Source of the DNA: an uncultured Clostridium sp.
Lineage (GTDB): Bacteria > Bacillota > Clostridia > TANB77 > CAG-508
Direction: 5' to 3'
DNA: 43,436 bases
Assembly (NCBI GenBank): GCA_964620415.1
Contig: CAZUHD010000003.1
Location: 1-43,436 of the forward strand
The position numbers and the translations under genes are program-made. Positions within the stretch are counted from its first letter, which is position 1. The number at the start of each line of letters is the position of its first letter. Under the pieces are notes generated by a model that worked only from the letters and a program-made list of their open reading frames with translations, was not told the origin of the DNA and did no database searches. This document shows, piece by piece, positions 4,587-33,269 of the stretch.

Positions 4587-4810
4587 AACTTAAAACTCAG
4601 GGTAATTTCACCGATTATTACAAAATTGTAATATTTGAATTTAACCATTGAGTTTTCAATACTTTTATAATTAATAAATTTTATATTTTATTTAATAACG
4701 TAAAGCAATTAACATAATTAAGATGATACGCAGCGATTGATATTTAAGCATTTTTTTAGAAATGTTACAAAATTGTAATAAATGATGAAATGACCCTGCT
4801 TAAAACTTTT
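4587..4810. repeat. Pair of ~50-bp imperfect inverted repeats (4587-4637 and 4759-4810) flanking ~120 bp. Each arm contains the near-palindrome TTACAAAATTGTAATA
   Basis: Arm 1 is ...CTCAGGGTAATTTCACCGATTATTACAAAATTGTAATATTT. The reverse complement of arm 2 is ...AGCAGGGTCATTTCATCATTTATTACAATTTTGTAACATTT. Confidence 0.6.
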
Positions 4811-4816
4811 AGCATA

Positions 4817-4845
4817 TAGACAAATGAATAAAAATAATGTATAAT
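4817..4845 (+). promoter_or_regulatory. Candidate sigma-A promoter for truA
   Basis: TAGACA (4817-4822), 17-nt spacer, TATAAT (4840-4845) with an extended -10 TG at 4838-4839. Confidence 0.45.
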
Positions 4846-4920
4846 GAAAAATATTTTACACGGTTGTAATATAAATTTAAAATTATAATTAAAATATGTA
4901 AAAGTGAACGGAGAGTAAGT

Positions 4921-8994: not shown

Positions 8995-10491
8995 ATGAAA
9001 GGTATATTTTACTGGCTAAAAGATAGTGCAAAAATGAAAAGATGGATAATGTTAATTCTAGTGGGAGTAGTATTTGCTTCATTTGGTATGGCAGAACTTA
9101 TAACTCCTAGTAAGGCAATTACATTTACCTATGCAGCAAAAATAATTGTGTATTTTGTAATAGGATTTACTTGTGTTGTACTTGGAATGGTTTATATTAA
9201 TAAGAGAAATATGGAATTATTTATTGAAGCAACAGATAATAGAATTGAAGGGAAAAAGAAAGTTAATGTTAATTCATTAATATTTGACAAAACAGTATAT
9301 AATCAAGGACCAAAAGTTGTTGTAATAGGAGGAGGAAGTGGTTTAAATACTATATTAGAGGGATTAAAAAAACATACGAGTAATATTACAGCAGTAGTTA
9401 CTATTTCAGATTATGGAGAAAGTTTTGGAAAAAATAGTGAAACGATGTTATATAGACAACTTGAAGATATAAAAAACTCATTTGCAGCTTTAAGAGTCGA
9501 TGATTATAGCGAAATGAAAAAATTGCTAGATTATAAATTTGGCAAAGGAAAGCTAAAAGGTTTAACTTTTTCTGACTTGTATTTTTCTACAATGTGTGAT
9601 CTTTCAGGAAATGTTGTTGAAGCAATAAAAAACTCAAATGATATTTTTAAAATATGTGGAAAAGTTTTACCAATTACAAGAGAGAAAATGACTATTTGTG
9701 CAGAATTAGACAATGGCTATATGATTGATGAAAAAGCTAGAGTACCAGAGATGGTATATAATAATAGTACTAAAATAAATAGAGTATATTTAAGTCCATC
9801 AAATTGTAGCCCTCTTCCAGAAGTGATTAAAGCAATTAGGGAAGCAGATGGAATTATAATAGGACCTGGAAGCCTATATGAAAATGTTATTCCTAATTTA
9901 CTTGTTAAAGGTGTAACAAGAGCAATTAAAGAATCAAAGGCAGTTAAATTATATGTATGTAATATAATGACAGAGCCTGGATTTACAGACGACTTCACGG
10001 TTTCTGATTATTTAAATGTAATAACAGACCATTGTGGAGAAGAATTAATTAATTATTGTTTATATGATACAGGAGAAGTAATGCCTGAATTTATAAAAAA
10101 ATATAACTTAGAAGGTTCTAATCTTGTAATTCAAGATTTATCAAAAGTAAAAGATAAACGTATTAAATTCATAAAGGAAAATATGTCTGTTATAAAAGAT
10201 GGATATATAAGGCATAATGCAATGATTGTTGCAGATACTTTAATTAAAATAATATGTGATGATTTAAAATATCAAGATAAACATAATGAAATAGAGTATA
10301 TGCTAATGGATTCAAAACTTCAAGTAGATAAGCAAATAAAAAAAGAAAATGAGAGAAGAAAAAGACTTTTAAAGTATGGAAAACCTACAGATGATAAAAA
10401 AATTCAAAGCAAATTTGCTATTAAATATAAGGAAAGAATACAGTCTATAAAAGATTCTGATAAAAATAAAAAAATAAAAAGTAAAACATAA
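8995..10491 (+). CDS. YvcK/CofD-family (UPF0052) protein with an N-terminal two-helix membrane anchor and a Lys-rich tail
   Basis: VVVIGGGSGLNTILEGLK...ITAVVTISDYGES...IIIGPGSLYENVIPNLLV...YVCNIMTEPG aligns from memory to B. subtilis YvcK. The usual ADDGGSSG motif is replaced by SDYGESFG. Confidence 0.7.
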   Translation: MKGIFYWLKDSAKMKRWIMLILVGVVFASFGMAELITPSKAITFTYAAKIIVYFVIGFTCVVLGMVYINKRNMELFIEATDNRIEGKKKVNVNSLIFDKTVYNQGPKVVVIGGGSGLNTILEGLKKHTSNITAVVTISDYGESFGKNSETMLYRQLEDIKNSFAALRVDDYSEMKKLLDYKFGKGKLKGLTFSDLYFSTMCDLSGNVVEAIKNSNDIFKICGKVLPITREKMTICAELDNGYMIDEKARVPEMVYNNSTKINRVYLSPSNCSPLPEVIKAIREADGIIIGPGSLYENVIPNLLVKGVTRAIKESKAVKLYVCNIMTEPGFTDDFTVSDYLNVITDHCGEELINYCLYDTGEVMPEFIKKYNLEGSNLVIQDLSKVKDKRIKFIKENMSVIKDGYIRHNAMIVADTLIKIICDDLKYQDKHNEIEYMLMDSKLQVDKQIKKENERRKRLLKYGKPTDDKKIQSKFAIKYKERIQSIKDSDKNKKIKSKT

Positions 10492-16335: not shown

Positions 16336-17763
16336 ATGAACATATATGAAATTGCTCATTTATTAAAAAGATATACAATTTTTGCCTTTTTTATAGTTGT
16401 CTTTTGCTTATTGTTTTTTTGTATTATTAACAAATTTGTTTACAAAAAGGAAATCAAGGCTAAGAAACTCATAATACCAACTATATTTTTATTTTATATA
16501 GTAATATTATTATGTGCTACATTTGCAGGGAGAAGTTCAAATTATAAAACAACATTTAATTGGAATTTGTTTAGCTCATATAAAGAAGCCTATATTACAG
16601 GAGAGAAATCTGCTTGGTTAAATTTAATACTAAATATACTGATATTTATACCAATGGGATTTTTGCTTCCATTATTAAGCAAAAAATTAAATAAATGGTA
16701 TAAAGTAGTTAGCGTTGGTTTCATAATTACACTAATAATTGAATTTACCCAATTATTAAGGCATGTAGGAATATTTGAAATAGATGATATATTTAATAAT
16801 ACACTTGGAACAATAATTGGATTTTTCATTATAAAGATATTTTTTATTATTATAAATAAAGGAGAAAGGAAAAAGATATTAAAGTGTGTTTTATGTTGCA
16901 TGCCATTAGTTTTAACTATCTTATTTTTTACGATAATTTTTACGAAATATAATTCACAAAAATATGGAAATTTAGATATATTATTATATACAAAAACTAA
17001 TATGAAAGACGTAACAGTAGAAGGAGATATTTCTTTCAATGTGGAGGAACGATATTTACCAGTATATAGTGCAAAAACATATTCTAAGCAAGAAGCAAGA
17101 CAAAATGCTGATGAAATAATGAAAAAAATGAATTTAGAGATAGTACGAGCAATTAATCTTGATACATTTTCTATTTTTCACACTGAAAGCGGAATAGATA
17201 TGCGATACTACTATAAAGGTGGAACATATACAATTGATAATACCAATATAAGTGATGATACCTTGAAAGAAAATAGTGTTAGCAACACAGGGATTGCAGT
17301 ACAGCAGAAACAATCTAATGCTGTGACTGAAAAAGATATAGTAATAAGAAAATTAGAAGAATTAGGAATAGAAATGAATTATGATTATATATATACTTTT
17401 GAAAATGGTTATCATATATTTACTGCTGATATGTATGATAATAAGGAATATGTAACTGATGGAAATCTTACAATTCGTTTGAATGAAAATGGAGGATATG
17501 AAATTAATAATAATATAATAAACTATTATAAAATAGATAATTGTAAAATTATTTCAGAAAATCAGGCATATCAAATATTGCTAAGTGGAAAATATAAATC
17601 CACATTTAATGAAAAAATAAAGAAGATAAAGATAAACTCAATAGAAATAGATTATATGCTTGACAGCAAAAATTATTATCAACCAGTTTATAAATTTAAA
17701 GTTTTCTTTAATGATATGGAAAATGATGAAAACATTTATATACCAGCAATTATAGTAAAATAA
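16336..17763 (+). CDS. VanZ-like membrane domain fused to a ~270-aa extracytoplasmic C-terminal domain of unknown function
   Basis: RBS AAGGAGG. The N-terminal half has NILIFIPMGFLLP and EIDDIFNNTLGT VanZ blocks. The C-terminal half is soluble-looking with no recognised family. Confidence 0.65.
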   Translation: MNIYEIAHLLKRYTIFAFFIVVFCLLFFCIINKFVYKKEIKAKKLIIPTIFLFYIVILLCATFAGRSSNYKTTFNWNLFSSYKEAYITGEKSAWLNLILNILIFIPMGFLLPLLSKKLNKWYKVVSVGFIITLIIEFTQLLRHVGIFEIDDIFNNTLGTIIGFFIIKIFFIIINKGERKKILKCVLCCMPLVLTILFFTIIFTKYNSQKYGNLDILLYTKTNMKDVTVEGDISFNVEERYLPVYSAKTYSKQEARQNADEIMKKMNLEIVRAINLDTFSIFHTESGIDMRYYYKGGTYTIDNTNISDDTLKENSVSNTGIAVQQKQSNAVTEKDIVIRKLEELGIEMNYDYIYTFENGYHIFTADMYDNKEYVTDGNLTIRLNENGGYEINNNIINYYKIDNCKIISENQAYQILLSGKYKSTFNEKIKKIKINSIEIDYMLDSKNYYQPVYKFKVFFNDMENDENIYIPAIIVK

Positions 17764-28385: not shown

Positions 28386-28748
28386 TTTAAAAAATATATA
28401 TGAAGGTCAAATAAAATGTACATATATTAAGAATTTAAATGCTAGTTACATAAATATATAAAAATAGAATAGGATTTACTAGGTACACTAGCTAGAAAAG
28501 ATGTGGATATATTTGCAGAGTTGGGAAGTAGAGTCAAATGATAAAATTTAATACATAAACTAATGATTTTCAGAATAAAAAATATCCTAAGTTTGACAGT
28601 TAAAATGAGCAATCTTATATGGAAGTAAGAATTGCTCGTTTTTAAGCTGTTGTCTAATTTAATCAAAAAAATTTTTTCAAAATTTATAATAATGTCATAA
28701 ATCTTTTAGAAAAAACTAGATTAAAAGCTTTTCCTAAATGTGTTATAA

Positions 28749-29558
28749 TTAATAATTTAAAAATTGTATTAAAGCTTGATTGAGTTCGTCTTTAACATCA
28801 TAAAAAGCACCATGCCCAGCATTTTCAAATGGAAATAGAACAGAAGAGCAAATATTATTATGCATAATTTCTGCCATAGGAAAAGAACATATTTTATCTT
28901 CTTTACCATGAAAAATCCCTGTTGGAACATTAATATATTTTAAAGAACCAAATATATCTTCATCTCTAAGTGCAATTAGAGAATTCATTTCTCCTATTCC
29001 AGATGCAGTATTGCTTAAATTTTGAAACCAATTTTTGAAAGCAATTGAAGGCTTTTTGTAAAAAAATATGTTCCCAAAATTTTCATTTAAAGCAGGCCTA
29101 TCATTATAACCTAGATTTATTAAATTATTAGTAGATTCTATCGTTTGACCATATGGATTATTTAGTGTTTTTGAATATGAAGGGACAGCAGAATCTAATA
29201 AGCATAATTTTCTAACGCCATATCCGTTATATAATTGCATATATTTAACAGCAATTGCACCTCCCATTGAAAAACCTAGCAAATCAAAGTTTGATAAATT
29301 TAAAGCATATATTACACAATATAGATCAGTTGCAAATTGACTATAATTATATCCATTACTTGTTTCATCAGAATTTCCAAATCCTCTTAAATCAATGCTT
29401 ATAATTCTATATCCACTTTTAATTAAATCAGGCACTTGGTATTCAAACATCTTATGAGATAAAGGCCAACCATGAATTAAAACTATTGTCTTATATCCAT
29501 TTGGATTTAATTCGTAAACTGCAATATTTGCATTATCAGTTGATGGAATAAAAAACAT
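28749..29558 (-). CDS. Alpha/beta-fold hydrolase
   Basis: Start chosen at MFFIPS (ATG 29558-29556) after GAAGGAG. Contains HGWPLS, nucleophile elbow GFSMGG, and C-terminal GHGAF. Confidence 0.75.
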   Translation of the reverse strand: MFFIPSTDNANIAVYELNPNGYKTIVLIHGWPLSHKMFEYQVPDLIKSGYRIISIDLRGFGNSDETSNGYNYSQFATDLYCVIYALNLSNFDLLGFSMGGAIAVKYMQLYNGYGVRKLCLLDSAVPSYSKTLNNPYGQTIESTNNLINLGYNDRPALNENFGNIFFYKKPSIAFKNWFQNLSNTASGIGEMNSLIALRDEDIFGSLKYINVPTGIFHGKEDKICSFPMAEIMHNNICSSVLFPFENAGHGAFYDVKDELNQALIQFLNY

Positions 29559-29716
29559 AAAATCTCCTTCTTTCATAAATTGTAATATATAATATGAAAA
29601 TTAATATAAATAGTGATTTTAAATACTAATATAATGAACAAAAGCTATGTTGCTATAACTTTTTTACTTGTTCTTTTAAATCATTAAAATTCTACAATCA
29701 GCAGGTTCATATTTAC

Positions 29717-29737
29717 ATCTTTATGGAACAGAAGAAT
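29717..29737. repeat. attR of element 1: half-site ATCTTTATGG (29717-29726) plus shared core ACAGAAGAAT (29728-29737)
   Basis: See attL at 19442-19466. There is a 9/10 inverted match between the half-sites. Confidence 0.7.
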
Positions 29738-29895
29738 TAGCCCATTTGGAAATGGTAGGAACTATAGTTCATCAATTAACAAAAGATGCTTCTATAGAAG
29801 AAATTGAAAAAGCTGGATTAGGAGAATATTATACAGACCATGGAGTAGATGTATATCCTGCATCAGCTGCTGGAAATCCATTTACTGCTGCATAT
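29737..29895 (+). CDS. cotJC: cotJC segment 2 of 3 (53 codons)
   Basis: LAHLEMVGTIVHQLTKDASIEEIEKAGLGEYYTDHGVDVYPASAAGNPFTAAY is the central Mn-catalase/CotJC block (E-x-x-H metal motif). It is in frame with segment 1 once element 1 is removed. Confidence 0.85.
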
Positions 29896-29913
29896 GGTGC
29901 TGTTAGATTAAGG
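29891..29913. repeat. attL of element 2: shared core CATAT (29891-29895) plus element half-site GGTGCTGTTAGATTAAGG (29896-29913)
   Basis: Inverted partner CCTTAAGTGTATAGCACC lies at 32999-33016. The core is repeated at 33016-33020. Confidence 0.75.
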
Positions 29914-30087
29914 AGAATAATACAAGTTTAGAGTAGAAAATCACCTAATTAAAGATTTTTAAGATTTTGTTCAAACTACCTATTTTAAAAATATTGGAAA
30001 ATACTATTTTTATTTTAATTTGTGTACAAGTTATTTTATTTTTATGTAAAATATGTTATACTAGTACAAGTAAAGGAGGAATACGAA

Positions 30088-30393
30088 ATGGAAGAAAAAT
30101 TAAATAATTTGCCGAACTCTTATAAAGAAGATATAAAGAAAGCCACTAAAATATTAAAGGAAAATGGTGCTAAGGAAGTATTTATTTTTGGGTCTGTTGC
30201 AAATGGAAAAATTAACGAAAATTCAGACATAGATATTGCAGTTAGAGGGATAAATGGAAAAGACTTTTACAAAGTTGCAGGTATATTAATGTTTGAGCTT
30301 GAAAATGAATTTGATTTAATAGATTTAGATGATAAAGAAAATCGTTTTTCTCAAATGTTATTAAGAGTAGGAGGATTATTAAAAGTTGGATAA
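30088..30393 (+). CDS. Nucleotidyltransferase-fold protein (MntA-like antitoxin candidate)
   Basis: ATG 30088 follows AAGGAGG. Contains the GS-x(10)-SDIDIAV minimal nucleotidyltransferase motif (FIFGSVANGKINENSDIDIAV). Overlaps the downstream HEPN gene by 8 nt. Confidence 0.7.
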   Translation: MEEKLNNLPNSYKEDIKKATKILKENGAKEVFIFGSVANGKINENSDIDIAVRGINGKDFYKVAGILMFELENEFDLIDLDDKENRFSQMLLRVGGLLKVG

Positions 30394-30835
30394 AATAATA
30401 AAAGAACAAATAGAATTTAAAATAAATGAAATAGATAAATTATTTTTAGAATATGATTTAATATTCAAAAAAATAGAAACAGAAACGCCAGATTTATTTG
30501 ATTTGACTATATTAGGCAGTGTTTTACATTCTTTTTATAATGGATTAGAAAATATATTTGATATTATTGCTAAAAATATAGACGGTAATGTTCCAATAGG
30601 AAACAAGTCTCATCAAGAATTACTACATCAAATGGCAAGTGAAAATAACAAAAGAGATGAAATTATTGATGAACAGCTATATTTAAAATTAAGAGAATAC
30701 GCAACTTTTAGACATTTTTATAGACATGCATATTCATTTCAATTAAATTGGGAGAAAATGCAACCGTTAGTCAAAAATATACATACCGTTTGGAAAGAAA
30801 GTAAACAAAGCTTGGAGAAATTTATTGGTGAATAG
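30386..30835 (+). CDS. HEPN-domain protein (HepT-like toxin candidate)
   Basis: TTG start. R-x4-H motif in FRHFYRHAY. Size and genetic coupling to the nucleotidyltransferase gene fit the family. Confidence 0.65.
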   Translation: MDKIIKEQIEFKINEIDKLFLEYDLIFKKIETETPDLFDLTILGSVLHSFYNGLENIFDIIAKNIDGNVPIGNKSHQELLHQMASENNKRDEIIDEQLYLKLREYATFRHFYRHAYSFQLNWEKMQPLVKNIHTVWKESKQSLEKFIGE

Positions 30836-31043
30836 GTTTATAAAAAAAATTATGTTTAAAAATTCACATGAAAAATTTAAACAAGATAGTATGGAATATT
30901 TAAAGGAATCAATATTTATTGAAAAAAATAAGGAAATTTTGCATAATAAAGGTTAGATTAAAATGTACTAAGCTTTTTTATTTACATAATATTTTTAAAA
31001 AGATTGCAGTTTAAATAGCAATTTTTATATGGTATTTTATTAT

Positions 31044-31077
31044 AGCAGAAGCAAGTTAAAATGGCTTCTGCTTTTTA
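31044..31077 (+). terminator. Terminator between the TA pair and the recombinase module
   Basis: AGCAGAAGC (31044-31052) pairs with GCTTCTGCT (31064-31072), then TTTTT. Confidence 0.6.
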
Positions 31078-31170
31078 GTTTGGGTAAAAATAATATTTGA
31101 TATATAAGTTTTATGCATAAACCTAAATACTAAAAATATTTATTTAAAGAGGTGTATGTGTGTGGAAAAA

Positions 31171-31275
31171 ATGAATTATAACATTAAAATTGAATATGGA
31201 AATAAAGATTTAAAAAATATCATATTACAAATATTTGAGGAATACTGTAGCAATAAGATTCTTGAGAAAGATTAG
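31171..31275 (+). CDS. 34-aa ORF upstream of recombinase 2; the start is uncertain (in-frame GTG 31162 or ATG 31156 are possible)
   Basis: MNYNIKIEYGNKDLKNIILQIFEEYCSNKILEKD*. An AGAGG lies 8 nt before GTG 31162. Positionally analogous to the small ORF before recombinase 1. Confidence 0.3.
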   Translation: MNYNIKIEYGNKDLKNIILQIFEEYCSNKILEKD

Positions 31276-31348
31276 AATAAGCATTTATGTTTTACTTATA
31301 ATGTAAAAAGACAAATGATTGCCTAAACCTTAAGGGAAGGAGGTAATT

Positions 31349-32974
31349 TTGCAAAAATCAGACAACATATATGAAAAACAATTTTATGTTGGATTATATA
31401 AAAGACTATCAAGAGATGACAATGATGGAAAAAAGGAAAGTGAAAGTATATCAAATCAGGACAAGATTCTAAGACAATATATTTTAGAATTAGCTAAGAA
31501 AGAGCCTCAGAATAGATTTATTATAGTAAAAGACTATACTGATGACGGGTACACAGGAACAAATTTCAATAGACCAGGTTTTATAGAAATGATTCATGAC
31601 ATTGAAAATGAAATAATAAATATGGTACTTGTAAAAGATTTAACAAGACTAGGGCGTAAAACAAACGAAGTACTTAGATATTATCAAGAATATTTTCCGT
31701 CAAAAAAAGTTAGATTTATTACTGCAACAGAAGATGCAATTGATACATATTATAAGGAAGATGATGATTTTATTCCTTTTAAAGCTGTTATGAGTGAGCA
31801 ATATCCAAAAGAAACATCAAGAAAAATTAAAGCTGTAAAAATTGCAAAAGCAAAACAAGGTTTATTTCAAGGAAATACAGCTCCTTATGGGTATAAAAAA
31901 GATTCAAATAATAAAAACAAATTAATAATTGATAAAGAAGTGTCAGAAATTATAAAAGAAATTTTTGAAAAATATTCAGAAGGATATACTCGTACAGAAA
32001 TAGTCAAAAGCTTAAATGAACGAAATATAAAACCACCAAGAGAATATTTAAAAATAAAGGGAATACAAGCAAATTCAGAAGGATGGAAAGAAGTAACAAT
32101 AACAAGAATTATTAGTAATCCTGTATATATAGGGACTATGGTAGGAGCAAAAACTATAAAACCAAGTTTTAGAAGAAAAGAGAGAATCATAAACAGCAAA
32201 GAAAATCAAATTATTGTTGAAAATACCCATGAACCTATAATTGATATAGAAACATTTAATAAATGCCAGAAGCTGAAAGAAAAATTTAAAAATAATCGAA
32301 ATCGAAAATATGATGATATTTTTAAAGGATTGGTCTATTGCAAAGATTGTGGTAGTATTTCAACATTAAAACATAAGGAAAAATCTAACAAAAATGGAAG
32401 AAAATGTGAAATCAATTCCTATATATGCTCTAGAGCTAACAAAGGAGTAAATAAAAGATGTAATAATACAAAATCTATCAGTAGTAATAAATTATATAAT
32501 TTAATTATACAAATTATAAAAAATGAATGTAAAAGTGTTTGTTTTAATGATAATGATATACGAACAGTTATGAATAATTTAGAAAAAAATATAAATTTTG
32601 AATGTTATAGATTAGAAGATGAAAAACAAAATTTATTTGCCAAAATAGATAAACTAAATGAGCAGATAAAAATTACATATAATGATAAACTCGAAAACAT
32701 CATCAATAATGAAACTTTTTTATCTATAAAAGAACAAAAGGAAATTGAGATTGAAGAATGTAAAAAACGAATTTATGTCTTAGAGAAGAAAATAGATATT
32801 GAAAGAAATAAATATACAATAAGTTATAATGGAATTAAAAAGCTATCTGAGGATTTTTTTAATACAAATAAAATAACTAAGCAGGCATTAAATAAACTAA
32901 TAGATAAAATTGAATTTGACAGTAATCGTAACATAAATTTAAAATTAGTATTCTCAAATATAAATAACAATTAA
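31349..32974 (+). CDS. Large serine recombinase of element 2 (541 aa)
   Basis: TTG start after GGAAGGAGG. Catalytic LYKRLSRDD...VLVKDLTRLGR resolvase domain, recombinase domain (GNTAPYGYKK), zinc ribbon (CKDCGS...CSRANKGVNKRC) and coiled coil. The stop lies 25 bp from the att half-site. Confidence 0.85.
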   Translation: MQKSDNIYEKQFYVGLYKRLSRDDNDGKKESESISNQDKILRQYILELAKKEPQNRFIIVKDYTDDGYTGTNFNRPGFIEMIHDIENEIINMVLVKDLTRLGRKTNEVLRYYQEYFPSKKVRFITATEDAIDTYYKEDDDFIPFKAVMSEQYPKETSRKIKAVKIAKAKQGLFQGNTAPYGYKKDSNNKNKLIIDKEVSEIIKEIFEKYSEGYTRTEIVKSLNERNIKPPREYLKIKGIQANSEGWKEVTITRIISNPVYIGTMVGAKTIKPSFRRKERIINSKENQIIVENTHEPIIDIETFNKCQKLKEKFKNNRNRKYDDIFKGLVYCKDCGSISTLKHKEKSNKNGRKCEINSYICSRANKGVNKRCNNTKSISSNKLYNLIIQIIKNECKSVCFNDNDIRTVMNNLEKNINFECYRLEDEKQNLFAKIDKLNEQIKITYNDKLENIINNETFLSIKEQKEIEIEECKKRIYVLEKKIDIERNKYTISYNGIKKLSEDFFNTNKITKQALNKLIDKIEFDSNRNINLKLVFSNINNN

Positions 32975-32998
32975 ACAATATCTTTATCAAAAAAGTAC

Positions 32999-33020
32999 CC
33001 TTAAGTGTATAGCACCATAT
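32999..33020. repeat. attR of element 2: half-site CCTTAAGTGTATAGCACC plus core (C)ATAT
   Basis: See attL at 29891-29913. Confidence 0.75.
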
Positions 33021-33269
33021 ATTGCTTGTAAAGGAGATCCTATAGCTAATTTACAAGAGGATTTAGCAGCAGAACAAAAAGCAAGGGCAACTTATGAAAA
33101 ACTAATTGACTTATGTAGAGATAATCCAGATGTATTAGATCCACTTAAATTTTTAAGACAAAGAGAAATAGTACACTTCCAAAGATTTGGAGAAGCACTT
33201 CGTAAGGTTCAAGATAGATTACAAGATAAAAATTGTTATATGAATGATTGTAGCTGTAATAAAAAATAA
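33021..33269 (+). CDS. cotJC: cotJC segment 3 of 3 (82 codons plus stop)
   Basis: IACKGDPIANLQEDLAAEQKARATYEKLIDLCRDNPDVLDPLKFLRQREIVHFQRFGEALRKV... matches the CotJC/Mn-catalase C-terminal half (second E..H motif). Confidence 0.85.
   Translation: MACKGDPIANLQEDLAAEQKARATYEKLIDLCRDNPDVLDPLKFLRQREIVHFQRFGEALRKVQDRLQDKNCYMNDCSCNKK

Follow-up and report, generated by a model that had tools for sequence, protein, structure and literature searches.

Element 2, a 3.1-kb large serine recombinase element inserted in the cotJC gene of an uncultured Clostridium and probably excised during sporulation

The interruption of sporulation genes by intervening elements is already established. In C. difficile, the sigK gene is cut by skinCd, an element encoding the large serine recombinase (LSR) CD1231 and the recombination directionality factor (RDF) CD1234, in which the LSR is constitutively expressed and the RDF of 72 amino acids (aa) is under sigma-E/SpoIIID control (PMC5025042). 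In B. cereus ATCC 10987, the gerE gene is interrupted by gin, a non-phage intervening element with the LSR GirC and the factor GirX (PMC5595907). LSR-mediated excision also rebuilds the sporulation genes spsM, spoVFB and spoVR, interrupted by SPbeta (with SprA and SprB), vfbin and vrin, respectively, although these, unlike the element described here, are prophages or remnants of prophages that span tens of kb. The cotJC gene is reportedly among the targets of intervening elements listed by Abe et al. in 2013, going by a passage in a preprint that cites them. The stretch of DNA analysed here, called the window, comprises 43,436 nucleotides of an uncultured Clostridium sp. (assembly GCA_964620415.1, contig CAZUHD010000003.1, positions 1 to 43,436 of the forward strand), in which cotJC is cut by two elements. 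The second of them, Element 2 (29896-33020, 3125 bp), is almost certainly an integrative element of the LSR type with a precise insertion in cotJC. Its excision in the mother cell, which would rebuild the gene, is given a probability of about 0.6, based on the analogy with skin, SPbeta, vfbin and gin and on the integrity of the gene fragments, the differentiated attachment (att) sites and the conserved partner open reading frame (ORF).

Like skinCd, Element 2 is an LSR element residing in a mother-cell sporulation gene and accompanied by a small partner protein, here encoded by orf37 upstream of the recombinase gene rec2, and the two-promoter layout of skinCd, housekeeping-type for the recombinase and separate for the small gene, resembles that of most Element 2 relatives. 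The two differ in their target (sigK vs. cotJC) and in the small protein (72 aa for the RDF vs. 37 aa for Orf37, with no sequence similarity), and Element 2 is devoid of phage genes. The size of skinCd is 14.6 kb, compared with 3.1 kb for Element 2 and 2.3-7.7 kb in its relatives. In gin as in Element 2, the att sites consist of imperfect inverted repeats flanking a short core that they share. However, gin is 28.6 kb long, carries three recombinases, has a predicted asymmetric crossover dinucleotide (AA) and occurs in another host clade and target, whereas Element 2, with a palindromic TA core, is only about a tenth as long.

The host gene occupies the third position in a cotJA-cotJB-cotJC operon, identified by the Pfam families CotJA, CotJB and Mn_catalase in two related loci (L032 and L038). 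In B. subtilis, cotJ is expressed in the mother cell, and mother-cell expression in the window organism is carried over from B. subtilis and C. difficile. The cotJ-type operons of C. difficile are mother-cell (sigma-K) genes (PMC3789822). The interrupted operon has the following layout:

18493-18882, cotJA, upstream of cotJC
18879-19256, cotJB, upstream of cotJC
19256..19451, + strand, cotJC segment A, codons 1-65, followed by Element 1 (ORF list, reconstruction, colinear with intact L038)
19452-29737, Element 1, 10,286 bp, cutting cotJC at codon 65 and bounded by the shared sequence ACAGAAGAAT
29738..29895, + strand, cotJC segment B, codons 66-118, host DNA separating Element 1 from Element 2
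29896..33020, + strand, Element 2, the exact deletion of which gives the L038 empty site; the boundary may be placed anywhere in the shared CATAT
33021..33269, + strand, cotJC segment C, codons 119-200 and the stop codon (colinear with intact L038)

The removal of Element 1 and Element 2 in silico resulted in a 200-aa ORF of a cotJC-type manganese catalase, which was colinear with solved Mn catalases across both junctions and 84-92% identical to many intact proteins of 193-210 aa. An uninterrupted orthologue (P0121) was found on contig CANRPS010000004.1 (L038), where it lies 3' of cotJA and cotJB and is followed, in synteny with the window, by the holin_4_2 and DUF421 genes. The rebuilt window cotJC and the L038 cotJC formed a gap-free alignment with 87% nucleotide identity. 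At junction 2, the L038 empty site (CCATTTACTGCTGCATATATTGC) was identical to the predicted repaired site, so the boundaries of Element 2 were confirmed to the base, together with the attP and the repaired host attB proposed for it in the original prediction, which was based on the window sequence alone. The fetched contigs with an intact cotJC (L038-L040 and L051-L053) came from other species or contexts, and no pair of occupied and empty sites from the same species was found among them.

Element 2 is inserted precisely between codons 118 and 119 of cotJC, with CATAT present at both junctions (29891-29895 and 33016-33020). Its ends, GGTGCTGTTAGATTAAGG (29896-29913) and CCTTAAGTGTATAGCACC (32999-33016), were indeed located where the original prediction had placed its inverted repeats. 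The first and the reverse complement of the second agreed at 13 of 18 positions, among them all of the inner six and all of the outer six, and counted from the dyad centre with the shared AT included, the match was 15/20. Among random 18-mer pairs drawn from the window, a match of at least 13/18 in a fixed register had P = 3.9e-4, a value which requires no correction for sliding because the register was set independently by the empty site.

The insertion recurs in related bacteria. The homologues of Rec2, nearly all 541 aa long, fell into about 90 protein clusters with 74-88% identity, and a scan of one genome per species revealed 16 loci with recombinases 82-92% identical, all from uncultured Clostridium or Clostridia of the rabbit, sheep and human gut. 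The original prediction would have been refuted by a presence in relatives with different boundaries, but the outcome was in its favour, as 14 of the 16 loci had the recombinase at the same codon of cotJC with the same arm motifs, empty sites exist and the boundaries in the relatives did not differ from those in the window. In 12 loci, segment C of cotJC was located directly 3' of the recombinase gene. In L014, the element follows segment B and the contig stops within the recombinase gene, and in L008 the element lies in reverse orientation, next to segment B. The contig of L015 was too short to place, and L006 had a different order (Rec2-attP-left end). The same site and arms were also detected on several metagenome contigs, and even a recombinase only 51% identical to Rec2 (L048) uses the same site.

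Synonymous divergence in Rec2 and in host segment C showed no correlation (r = -0.06); e.g., L001 and L032 differed by a synonymous divergence (pS) of 0.19 in Rec2 and 0.67 in the host gene. This lack of correlation indicates that the family moves between species, and strict vertical inheritance or domestication of the family was rejected on these grounds. The rebuilt cotJC was full length in four of five occupied loci (the window, L001, L032 and L042). In the fifth, L005 (3605-3630), the otherwise intact cotJC has a +1 frameshift with substitutions (GATGTACGGTACTGAAG vs. GATATAGGTACAGAAG) precisely at the site where Element 1 attaches, which may be the trace of an imprecise excision or an error of assembly.

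A more distant recombinase, 39% identical to Rec2, was found in L049/L050 (7824-9620 and flanks) with a homologous 39-aa ORF upstream. The cargo there resembles a type VII secretion system (FtsK/EssC-like and WXG100-like proteins), and the element abuts a truncated polysaccharide-deacetylase-like ORF beside yabP/yqfD. Its sequence context suggests that the wider clade targets other sporulation genes.

Within Element 2 and at its edges, the following features were delineated:

29872..29915, attL, consisting of the host B arm CCATTTACTGCTGCAT, the central TA (29893-29894) and the element P' arm ATGGTGCTGTTAGATTAAGG (8-locus junction alignment, half-site consensus)
29934..29946, + strand, degenerate left-end version TAGAAAATCACCT of the 13-bp box TAGACAACCATTC (box found in 8 relatives)
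30088..30393, + strand, MntA-like nucleotidyltransferase, predicted type VII antitoxin (Pfam Polbeta 3e-12, NTP_transf_2 2e-9; PADLOC PDC-S09)
30386..30835, + strand, HepT-like HEPN protein, predicted toxin (Pfam HepT-like_2 1.5e-31; RHFYRH, an Rx4H motif)
31044..31076, + strand, terminator-like hairpin with a T-run closing the cargo module (fold -13.3 kcal/mol, z = -2.0)
31162..31275, + strand, orf37, 37 codons, GTG start, ribosome binding site (RBS) AGAGGTG, candidate RDF or regulator
31313..31325, - strand, degenerate version TAGGCAATCATTT of the same 13-bp box, with 3 mismatches in the window
31349..32974, + strand, rec2, 541-aa LSR, TTG start, RBS GGAAGGAGG (Pfam, AlphaFold2, Foldseek, substitution rates)
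32975..32998, relic of a first attP site, in which ATCTTTATCAAAA (equal to the outer part of the P1 arm) is fused to the 17-bp spacer AAAAGTAC (right ends of 18 loci compared)
32997..33040, attR, consisting of the element P arm CCTTAAGTGTATAGCACCAT, the central TA (33018-33019) and the host B' arm ATATTGCTTGTAAAGG (junction alignment, half-site consensus)

Rec2 possesses the Pfam domains Resolvase (PF00239), Recombinase (PF07508) and Zn_ribbon_recom (PF13408) as well as the catalytic motif YKRLSRDD. Its AlphaFold2 model, built on a 32-sequence alignment, comprised a catalytic N-terminal domain, a recombinase domain, a beta-rich zinc-ribbon domain and terminal strands, with a long helical hairpin of the coiled-coil type at residues 401-486 modelled with a per-residue confidence (pLDDT) above 90. 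The Foldseek search with this model matched full-length serine integrase-DNA complexes (E from 1e-23 to 1e-14) and also 4kis, so that the modelled protein has the full LSR architecture. The ratio of nonsynonymous to synonymous substitution rates (dN/dS) was 0.08-0.13 relative to 12 relatives, which indicates that the gene is maintained by selection. As had been supposed from their active-site motifs, Rec2 and the Element 1 recombinase (Rec1) belong to different subfamilies, sharing only about 27% identity.

The closest characterised recombinases are TndX of Tn5397, 40% identical to Rec2 over residues 14-397, and TnpX of Tn4451, with the catalytic domain matching at E = 7e-21. The catalytic domain of TnpX has an RLSRDD-type active-site motif, and Tn4451 is, like Element 2, small and not phage-related. 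The differences concern the Pfam domain DUF4368, taken as a proxy for the TnpX/TndX type, without a match in Rec2 but present in the recombinases of neighbouring elements in L044 and L072, and the lack in Element 2 of Mob/oriT, conjugation or resistance genes. Moreover, Element 2 has a single fixed target and differentiated att half-sites, and its central dinucleotide is TA, whereas transposons of the Tn4451/Tn5397 type use GA. No close relative of Rec2 was found among phage recombinases, the best of 50,697 phage records being 33% identical and the best IMG/VR contig 28%. A phage origin was dismissed, as no phage structural, lysis or replication ORFs were present and the identity to phage records did not exceed 33%.

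The junction alignment revealed a uniform organization of the att sites. At the left junctions of all aligned loci, host ...ACAGCA(T/G)C-ATAT was followed by G(A/G/C)TGC(T/G)GT-n5-TAAGG, and at the right junctions CCTTA-n5-ACAGCAnC-ATAT was followed by host ATTGC. Half-site consensus sequences, built from 9-15 loci and read from the centre outward, were ATGaTGCTGTnnnnnTAAGG for the P and P' arms, ATATTGCntgtAAAGG for the B' arm and AtGntGCtGTaAAtGG for the B arm (reverse complement). The outer motif occupied positions 16-20 in the P arms (TAAGG) and 12-16 in the B arms (AA(A/T)GG) and was thus shifted inward by 4 bp in the host arms. By this hallmark of LSR attB versus attP sites, the element arms are attP-type half-sites and the host flanks attB-type half-sites. 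For the LI/A118 integrase, the motif of the zinc-ribbon domain is likewise nearer the centre in attB, with a shift of 5 bp (PMC3783163). The A118/LI system also has a pseudo-palindromic attP and an inner motif common to attP and attB, although its likeness to Rec2 is only structural (17-20% identity). Judging from the aligned junctions, the family appears to be dedicated to one 40-bp site inside cotJC.

The crossover was placed at TA on the basis of the dyad centre of the inferred attP (CCAT|ATGG) and the shared CATAT. The orientation of LSR recombination is set by the central dinucleotide alone (Ghosh 2003, Smith 2004, cited in PMC3783163), and in the studied phage integrases this dinucleotide is asymmetric, unlike the TA of Element 2. 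As TA is self-complementary, the site would have no polarity, and integration either way round as well as in-place inversion is predicted. Of the elements with a TA core, those of about 14 loci were in the forward orientation and those of L042/L043 and L075 were inverted. In other loci the core followed the host allele: it was TG in L032 (host N-C-L) and AC in L009, where the element is forward, while in L008 and L041 it was GT in the sense of cotJC with the element inverted, i.e., AC in the element frame. The orientation of the elements with asymmetric cores thus tracks the polarity of the host allele, and the matching host alleles exist as intact genes. Both natural orientations with TA and the polarity-tracking asymmetric cores fit the central-dinucleotide rule.

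In 7 of 18 right ends, among them those of L004, L010, L016 and L042, the arm in use was preceded by a complete palindromic attP-like site (P1-A GT A-P1') and 16-17 bp, the two central dinucleotides being GT/AC and TA, respectively. In L008 and L041, which represent one element (99.65% identity over 4.3 kb), the integration occurred via the first site and the intact TA-type attP remains internal. Such adjacent pairs probably constitute a dual attP, either site of which can be used for integration, and less probably a relic of tandem insertion. In the window copy, the first of the two sites is deleted.

A further attP junction was observed in L006 (7620-8027, contig CANQXD010000034.1), where Rec2 is followed by an intact junction, CCTTAACAATACTGCATC-ATAT-AATGCTGTATCATTAAGG, and then by the left end of the element, with no cotJC within 6 kb upstream. 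Such an order may stem from a circle, from a tandem array or from capture by another replicon.

The partner ORF, noticed in the original prediction as a tiny ORF of 34 aa, proved to be real and conserved, although by homology it has 37 codons and starts from the GTG at 31162. It was intact (34-37 codons) in 17 of 17 loci, with the consensus MEKVNYNIKIEYGNQDLKNIILQIFEEYCANKIL... and a ratio of nonsynonymous to synonymous divergence (pN/pS) of 0.34, as under purifying selection. Homologous ORFs also precede the recombinases of 51% and 39% identity, of which the second lies at another target gene. On this pattern of conservation, orf37 is a candidate for the RDF of Rec2.

The intergenic regions contain several conserved signals. 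The terminator-like hairpin is kept in relatives with compensatory changes, and a promoter-like block, TAATATTTG...TTAGGTTTTATG(C/A)ATAAAC, upstream of orf37 is common to them. This block resembles a mother-cell -10 region (CATA...) as well as a forespore -35 region (GnATAA), but neither has the correct spacing at all loci, and no assignment was made. Between orf37 and rec2, most relatives have a near-consensus promoter, TTTACA-17-TATAAT. A 13-bp box, TAGACAACCATTC, was found 36 nt upstream of the Rec2 start with 0-1 mismatch in 15 of 17 loci, and in 8 loci it also occurs in inverted form some 38 nt inward from the left end. The SpoIIID consensus WWRRACARNY is matched by the conserved box TTAGACAACC, which may serve as a lead only.

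The TA-like cargo pair named in the original prediction was recovered as nucleotidyltransferase and HepT-like genes. They overlap by 8 nt and retain the GSx(n)DxD motif (FGSVANGKINENSDIDIA) and the Rx4H motif RHFYRH, as in type VII MntA/HepT modules, to which the pair is assigned by its predicted domains and motifs, although the NCBIfam MntA score of the nucleotidyltransferase (1.6e-10) is below the cutoff. In contrast to the described modules, the pair is known here from sequence and is optional cargo. It was confined to the window, L010 and L044, with the nucleotidyltransferase alone in L042 and L075, and a homologue of the nucleotidyltransferase was detected in only 3-4 relatives. The region between the left arm and the terminator differs from locus to locus (RhuM, HTH_36, DUF2207_C, DUF5710 or NUDIX), and other cargo in the relatives includes an acetyltransferase, a methyltransferase and a GTPase-like gene. 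The content of the element beyond the arms, Rec2 and Orf37 appears, from these comparisons, to be interchangeable cargo.

Element sizes ranged from 3.1 kb in the window to about 7.7 kb, with about 2.3 kb inferred for L014, the contig of which ends inside the recombinase gene. In L014, the 402 bp from attL to orf37 contain no ORF of at least 70 aa, which makes the toxin-antitoxin pair optional and also means that Element 2 is not, as had been thought, about as small as such an element can be. Its presumed self-sufficiency extends at most to recombination, as no transfer or replication function is present: no Mob, Rep, conjugation, oriT or resistance functions were found among the ORFs of Element 2 (29896-33020) in the ORF list or by Pfam.

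According to the proposed mechanism, Rec2 dimers would occupy attL and attR and cleave the central TA with a 2-bp stagger. The exchange of half-sites would release a 3125-bp circle carrying CCTTAAGTGTATAGCACC-ATAT-GGTGCTGTTAGATTAAGG and leave the chromosome as ...TTTACTGCTGCATATATTGCTTGTAAA..., with a rejoined site including GCTGCATATATTGCTTG and the reading frame restored. The analogy with skinCd (CD1231/CD1234), SPbeta (SprA/SprB) and gin (GirC/GirX) suggests that Orf37, acting as the RDF, would trigger excision in the terminal mother cell, while the germ-line copy in the spore would keep the element. Recombination between attL and attR may invert as well as excise the element, but since inversion regenerates excisable sites, excision would stay the end point. 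The state of the host gene is consistent with such a scenario, as the cotJC fragments are still intact ORFs, all three being free of stops and frameshifts in the window and highly conserved in nearly all carriers.

Several results weigh against mother-cell excision. No free circle junction of Element 2 was found in the scan of the metagenome and IMG/VR viral collections with an attP-junction pattern in IUPAC code, the genome collection lying outside the scan. It returned one metagenome match (L041) and none in viral contigs; L041 was discarded as a free circle because it represents the internal unused attP of an integrated relative, and the element-sized contigs L074 and L075 were discarded as circles because they showed no terminal overlap and are ordinary integrated copies. 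The attP-type junctions of L006 and L041 are both embedded in longer contigs. Neither orf37 nor rec2 could be given a sigma-E or sigma-K promoter, the G(C/A)ATAAAC block fitting no consensus cleanly, and the scan for sigma-70 promoters gave results at the level of chance (30 found vs. 25.7 expected). Orf37 had no match in Pfam, PHROGs or PADLOC and no detectable similarity to known RDFs, and its single-sequence AlphaFold2 model consisted of one helix only. The recombinase of Element 1 (Rec1, 26825-28216 and 28128-28385) is split by a frameshift near 28175-28195, its last 59 residues lying in another frame and being homologous to the C-terminus of the intact 519-aa homologue in L014. This could be explained by either a pseudogene or an assembly error in the metagenome contig; if real, cotJC could not be restored here whatever Element 2 does, so the excision of Element 2 alone would be insufficient. 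TndX and TnpX, the closest relatives of Rec2, are naturally bidirectional and need no RDF (PMC2475636), and C. difficile can form its coat without catalase-type coat proteins (PMC11222575), so that the permanent inactivation of cotJC might be tolerated. On these two points, among others, Element 2 might be regarded as an element without a developmental role, for which cotJC is merely a safe landing pad: a TndX/TnpX-like Rec2 would excise and integrate it unaided at low frequency for horizontal spread, and the spores of the carriers would lack CotJC. The horizontal movement of the family, the accumulation of three or more different elements in one cotJC, the unassigned sporulation promoter and the frameshifts in L005 cotJC and window Rec1 would agree with it. 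Such an explanation, the main rival, is nevertheless rather unlikely in view of the conserved, intact cotJC fragments in nearly all carriers and the strict conservation of a tiny ORF beside the recombinase. The differentiation of attP- and attB-type sites, as in directional integrases, the lack of DUF4368 in Rec2 and of a Mob/oriT module and the occurrence of distant relatives in what is probably another sporulation gene (the polysaccharide-deacetylase-like one by yabP/yqfD) also speak against it.

The condition of the window copy itself could be taken to mean that it is an immobilised, decaying relic of a family that is or was active, with regulated excision lost here and cotJC dead. A 10-bp deletion in the region 31297-31302 removed the -35 sequence of the rec2 promoter (17-locus alignment), both 13-bp boxes are degenerate, with at least three mismatches compared with 0-1 in 15 of 17 relatives, the first site of the dual attP is deleted and the Rec1 frameshift would prevent the rejoining of the 5' third of cotJC. 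The promoter and box defects count against excision of this copy as well. Such decay is, however, improbable considering that rec2 (541 aa) and orf37 are intact, that dN/dS between the window and its relatives is as low as for other pairs, that both arms retain the conserved inner and outer motifs and that none of the three cotJC fragments has a stop or frameshift, while the Rec1 frameshift is possibly an assembly error. An artefact, i.e., chance repeats in AT-rich DNA or a chimeric assembly, has practically no probability left. The 25% G+C content makes short repeats common and the contig is of metagenome origin, but assemblies made independently from many samples and species show the same junctions, arms and gene order, the empty site matches to the base and the repeat has P ~4e-4 at a fixed register, by which this explanation is already effectively refuted. 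Developmentally regulated excision of Element 2 in the mother cell is the preferred interpretation, at the probability given above.

Compared with the known intervening elements, the extreme reduction, the 37-aa partner ORF and the palindromic core with both natural orientations appear to be new, and so do the dual attP in relatives and the serial interruption of one short gene. It is a tentative and so far doubtful proposal that the Rec2 family represents a distinct class of miniature non-phage mobile gene-switch cassettes, with a core of about 2.3 kb (two att arms, the 37-aa protein and the LSR), the smallest known RDF, an orientation-free TA and a dual attP, and that the cotJ operon is a landing pad for multiple elements. 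If this were true, the dual attP (TA and GT/AC) would allow one element to integrate at the same codon pair of cotJC in more than one of its allelic forms (A-Y-I or S-V-L), and the rebuilding of one 600-bp gene would need up to three or four independent, compatible excisions. If excised, Element 2 would be, to our knowledge, the smallest sporulation gene-intervening element, and an element reduced to its recombination module would offer a clean system for studies of timing. Its compact LSR/att pair, together with the 37-aa protein as a candidate RDF, is also attractive for genome engineering, in which short RDFs are useful, and the family provides a natural test of the consequences of a palindromic central dinucleotide. 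The dual attP, if functional, would be a new way to widen the host range of an integrase element with the recombinase unchanged. The question arises how several excisions are coordinated and why cotJC is so favoured.

Other LSR families also cut cotJC, at codon 65 (Element 1), at about codon 99 and at about codon 135, and the elements at about codon 99 have DUF4368-type recombinases with RepL/Mob_Pre or Fic cargo. Three or more different LSR elements, located at about codons 99, 118 and 135, interrupt cotJC in some genomes (L072 and also L004, L007, L010 and L044), and some of these elements have paired recombinases. At least three elements were present in one cotJC in L072, with pieces of the gene at 3-62, 4805-4882, 9699-9773 and 17065-17250. 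A further element of L033/L034 lies just ahead of cotJC, probably inside cotJB. In the window, the first Element 1 ORF (19478-19870) corresponds to an AbiLi-like ATPase over its C-terminal third only (PADLOC AbiLi, positions 193-299 of the profile of 326), which suggests truncated defence cargo at the left edge of this element.

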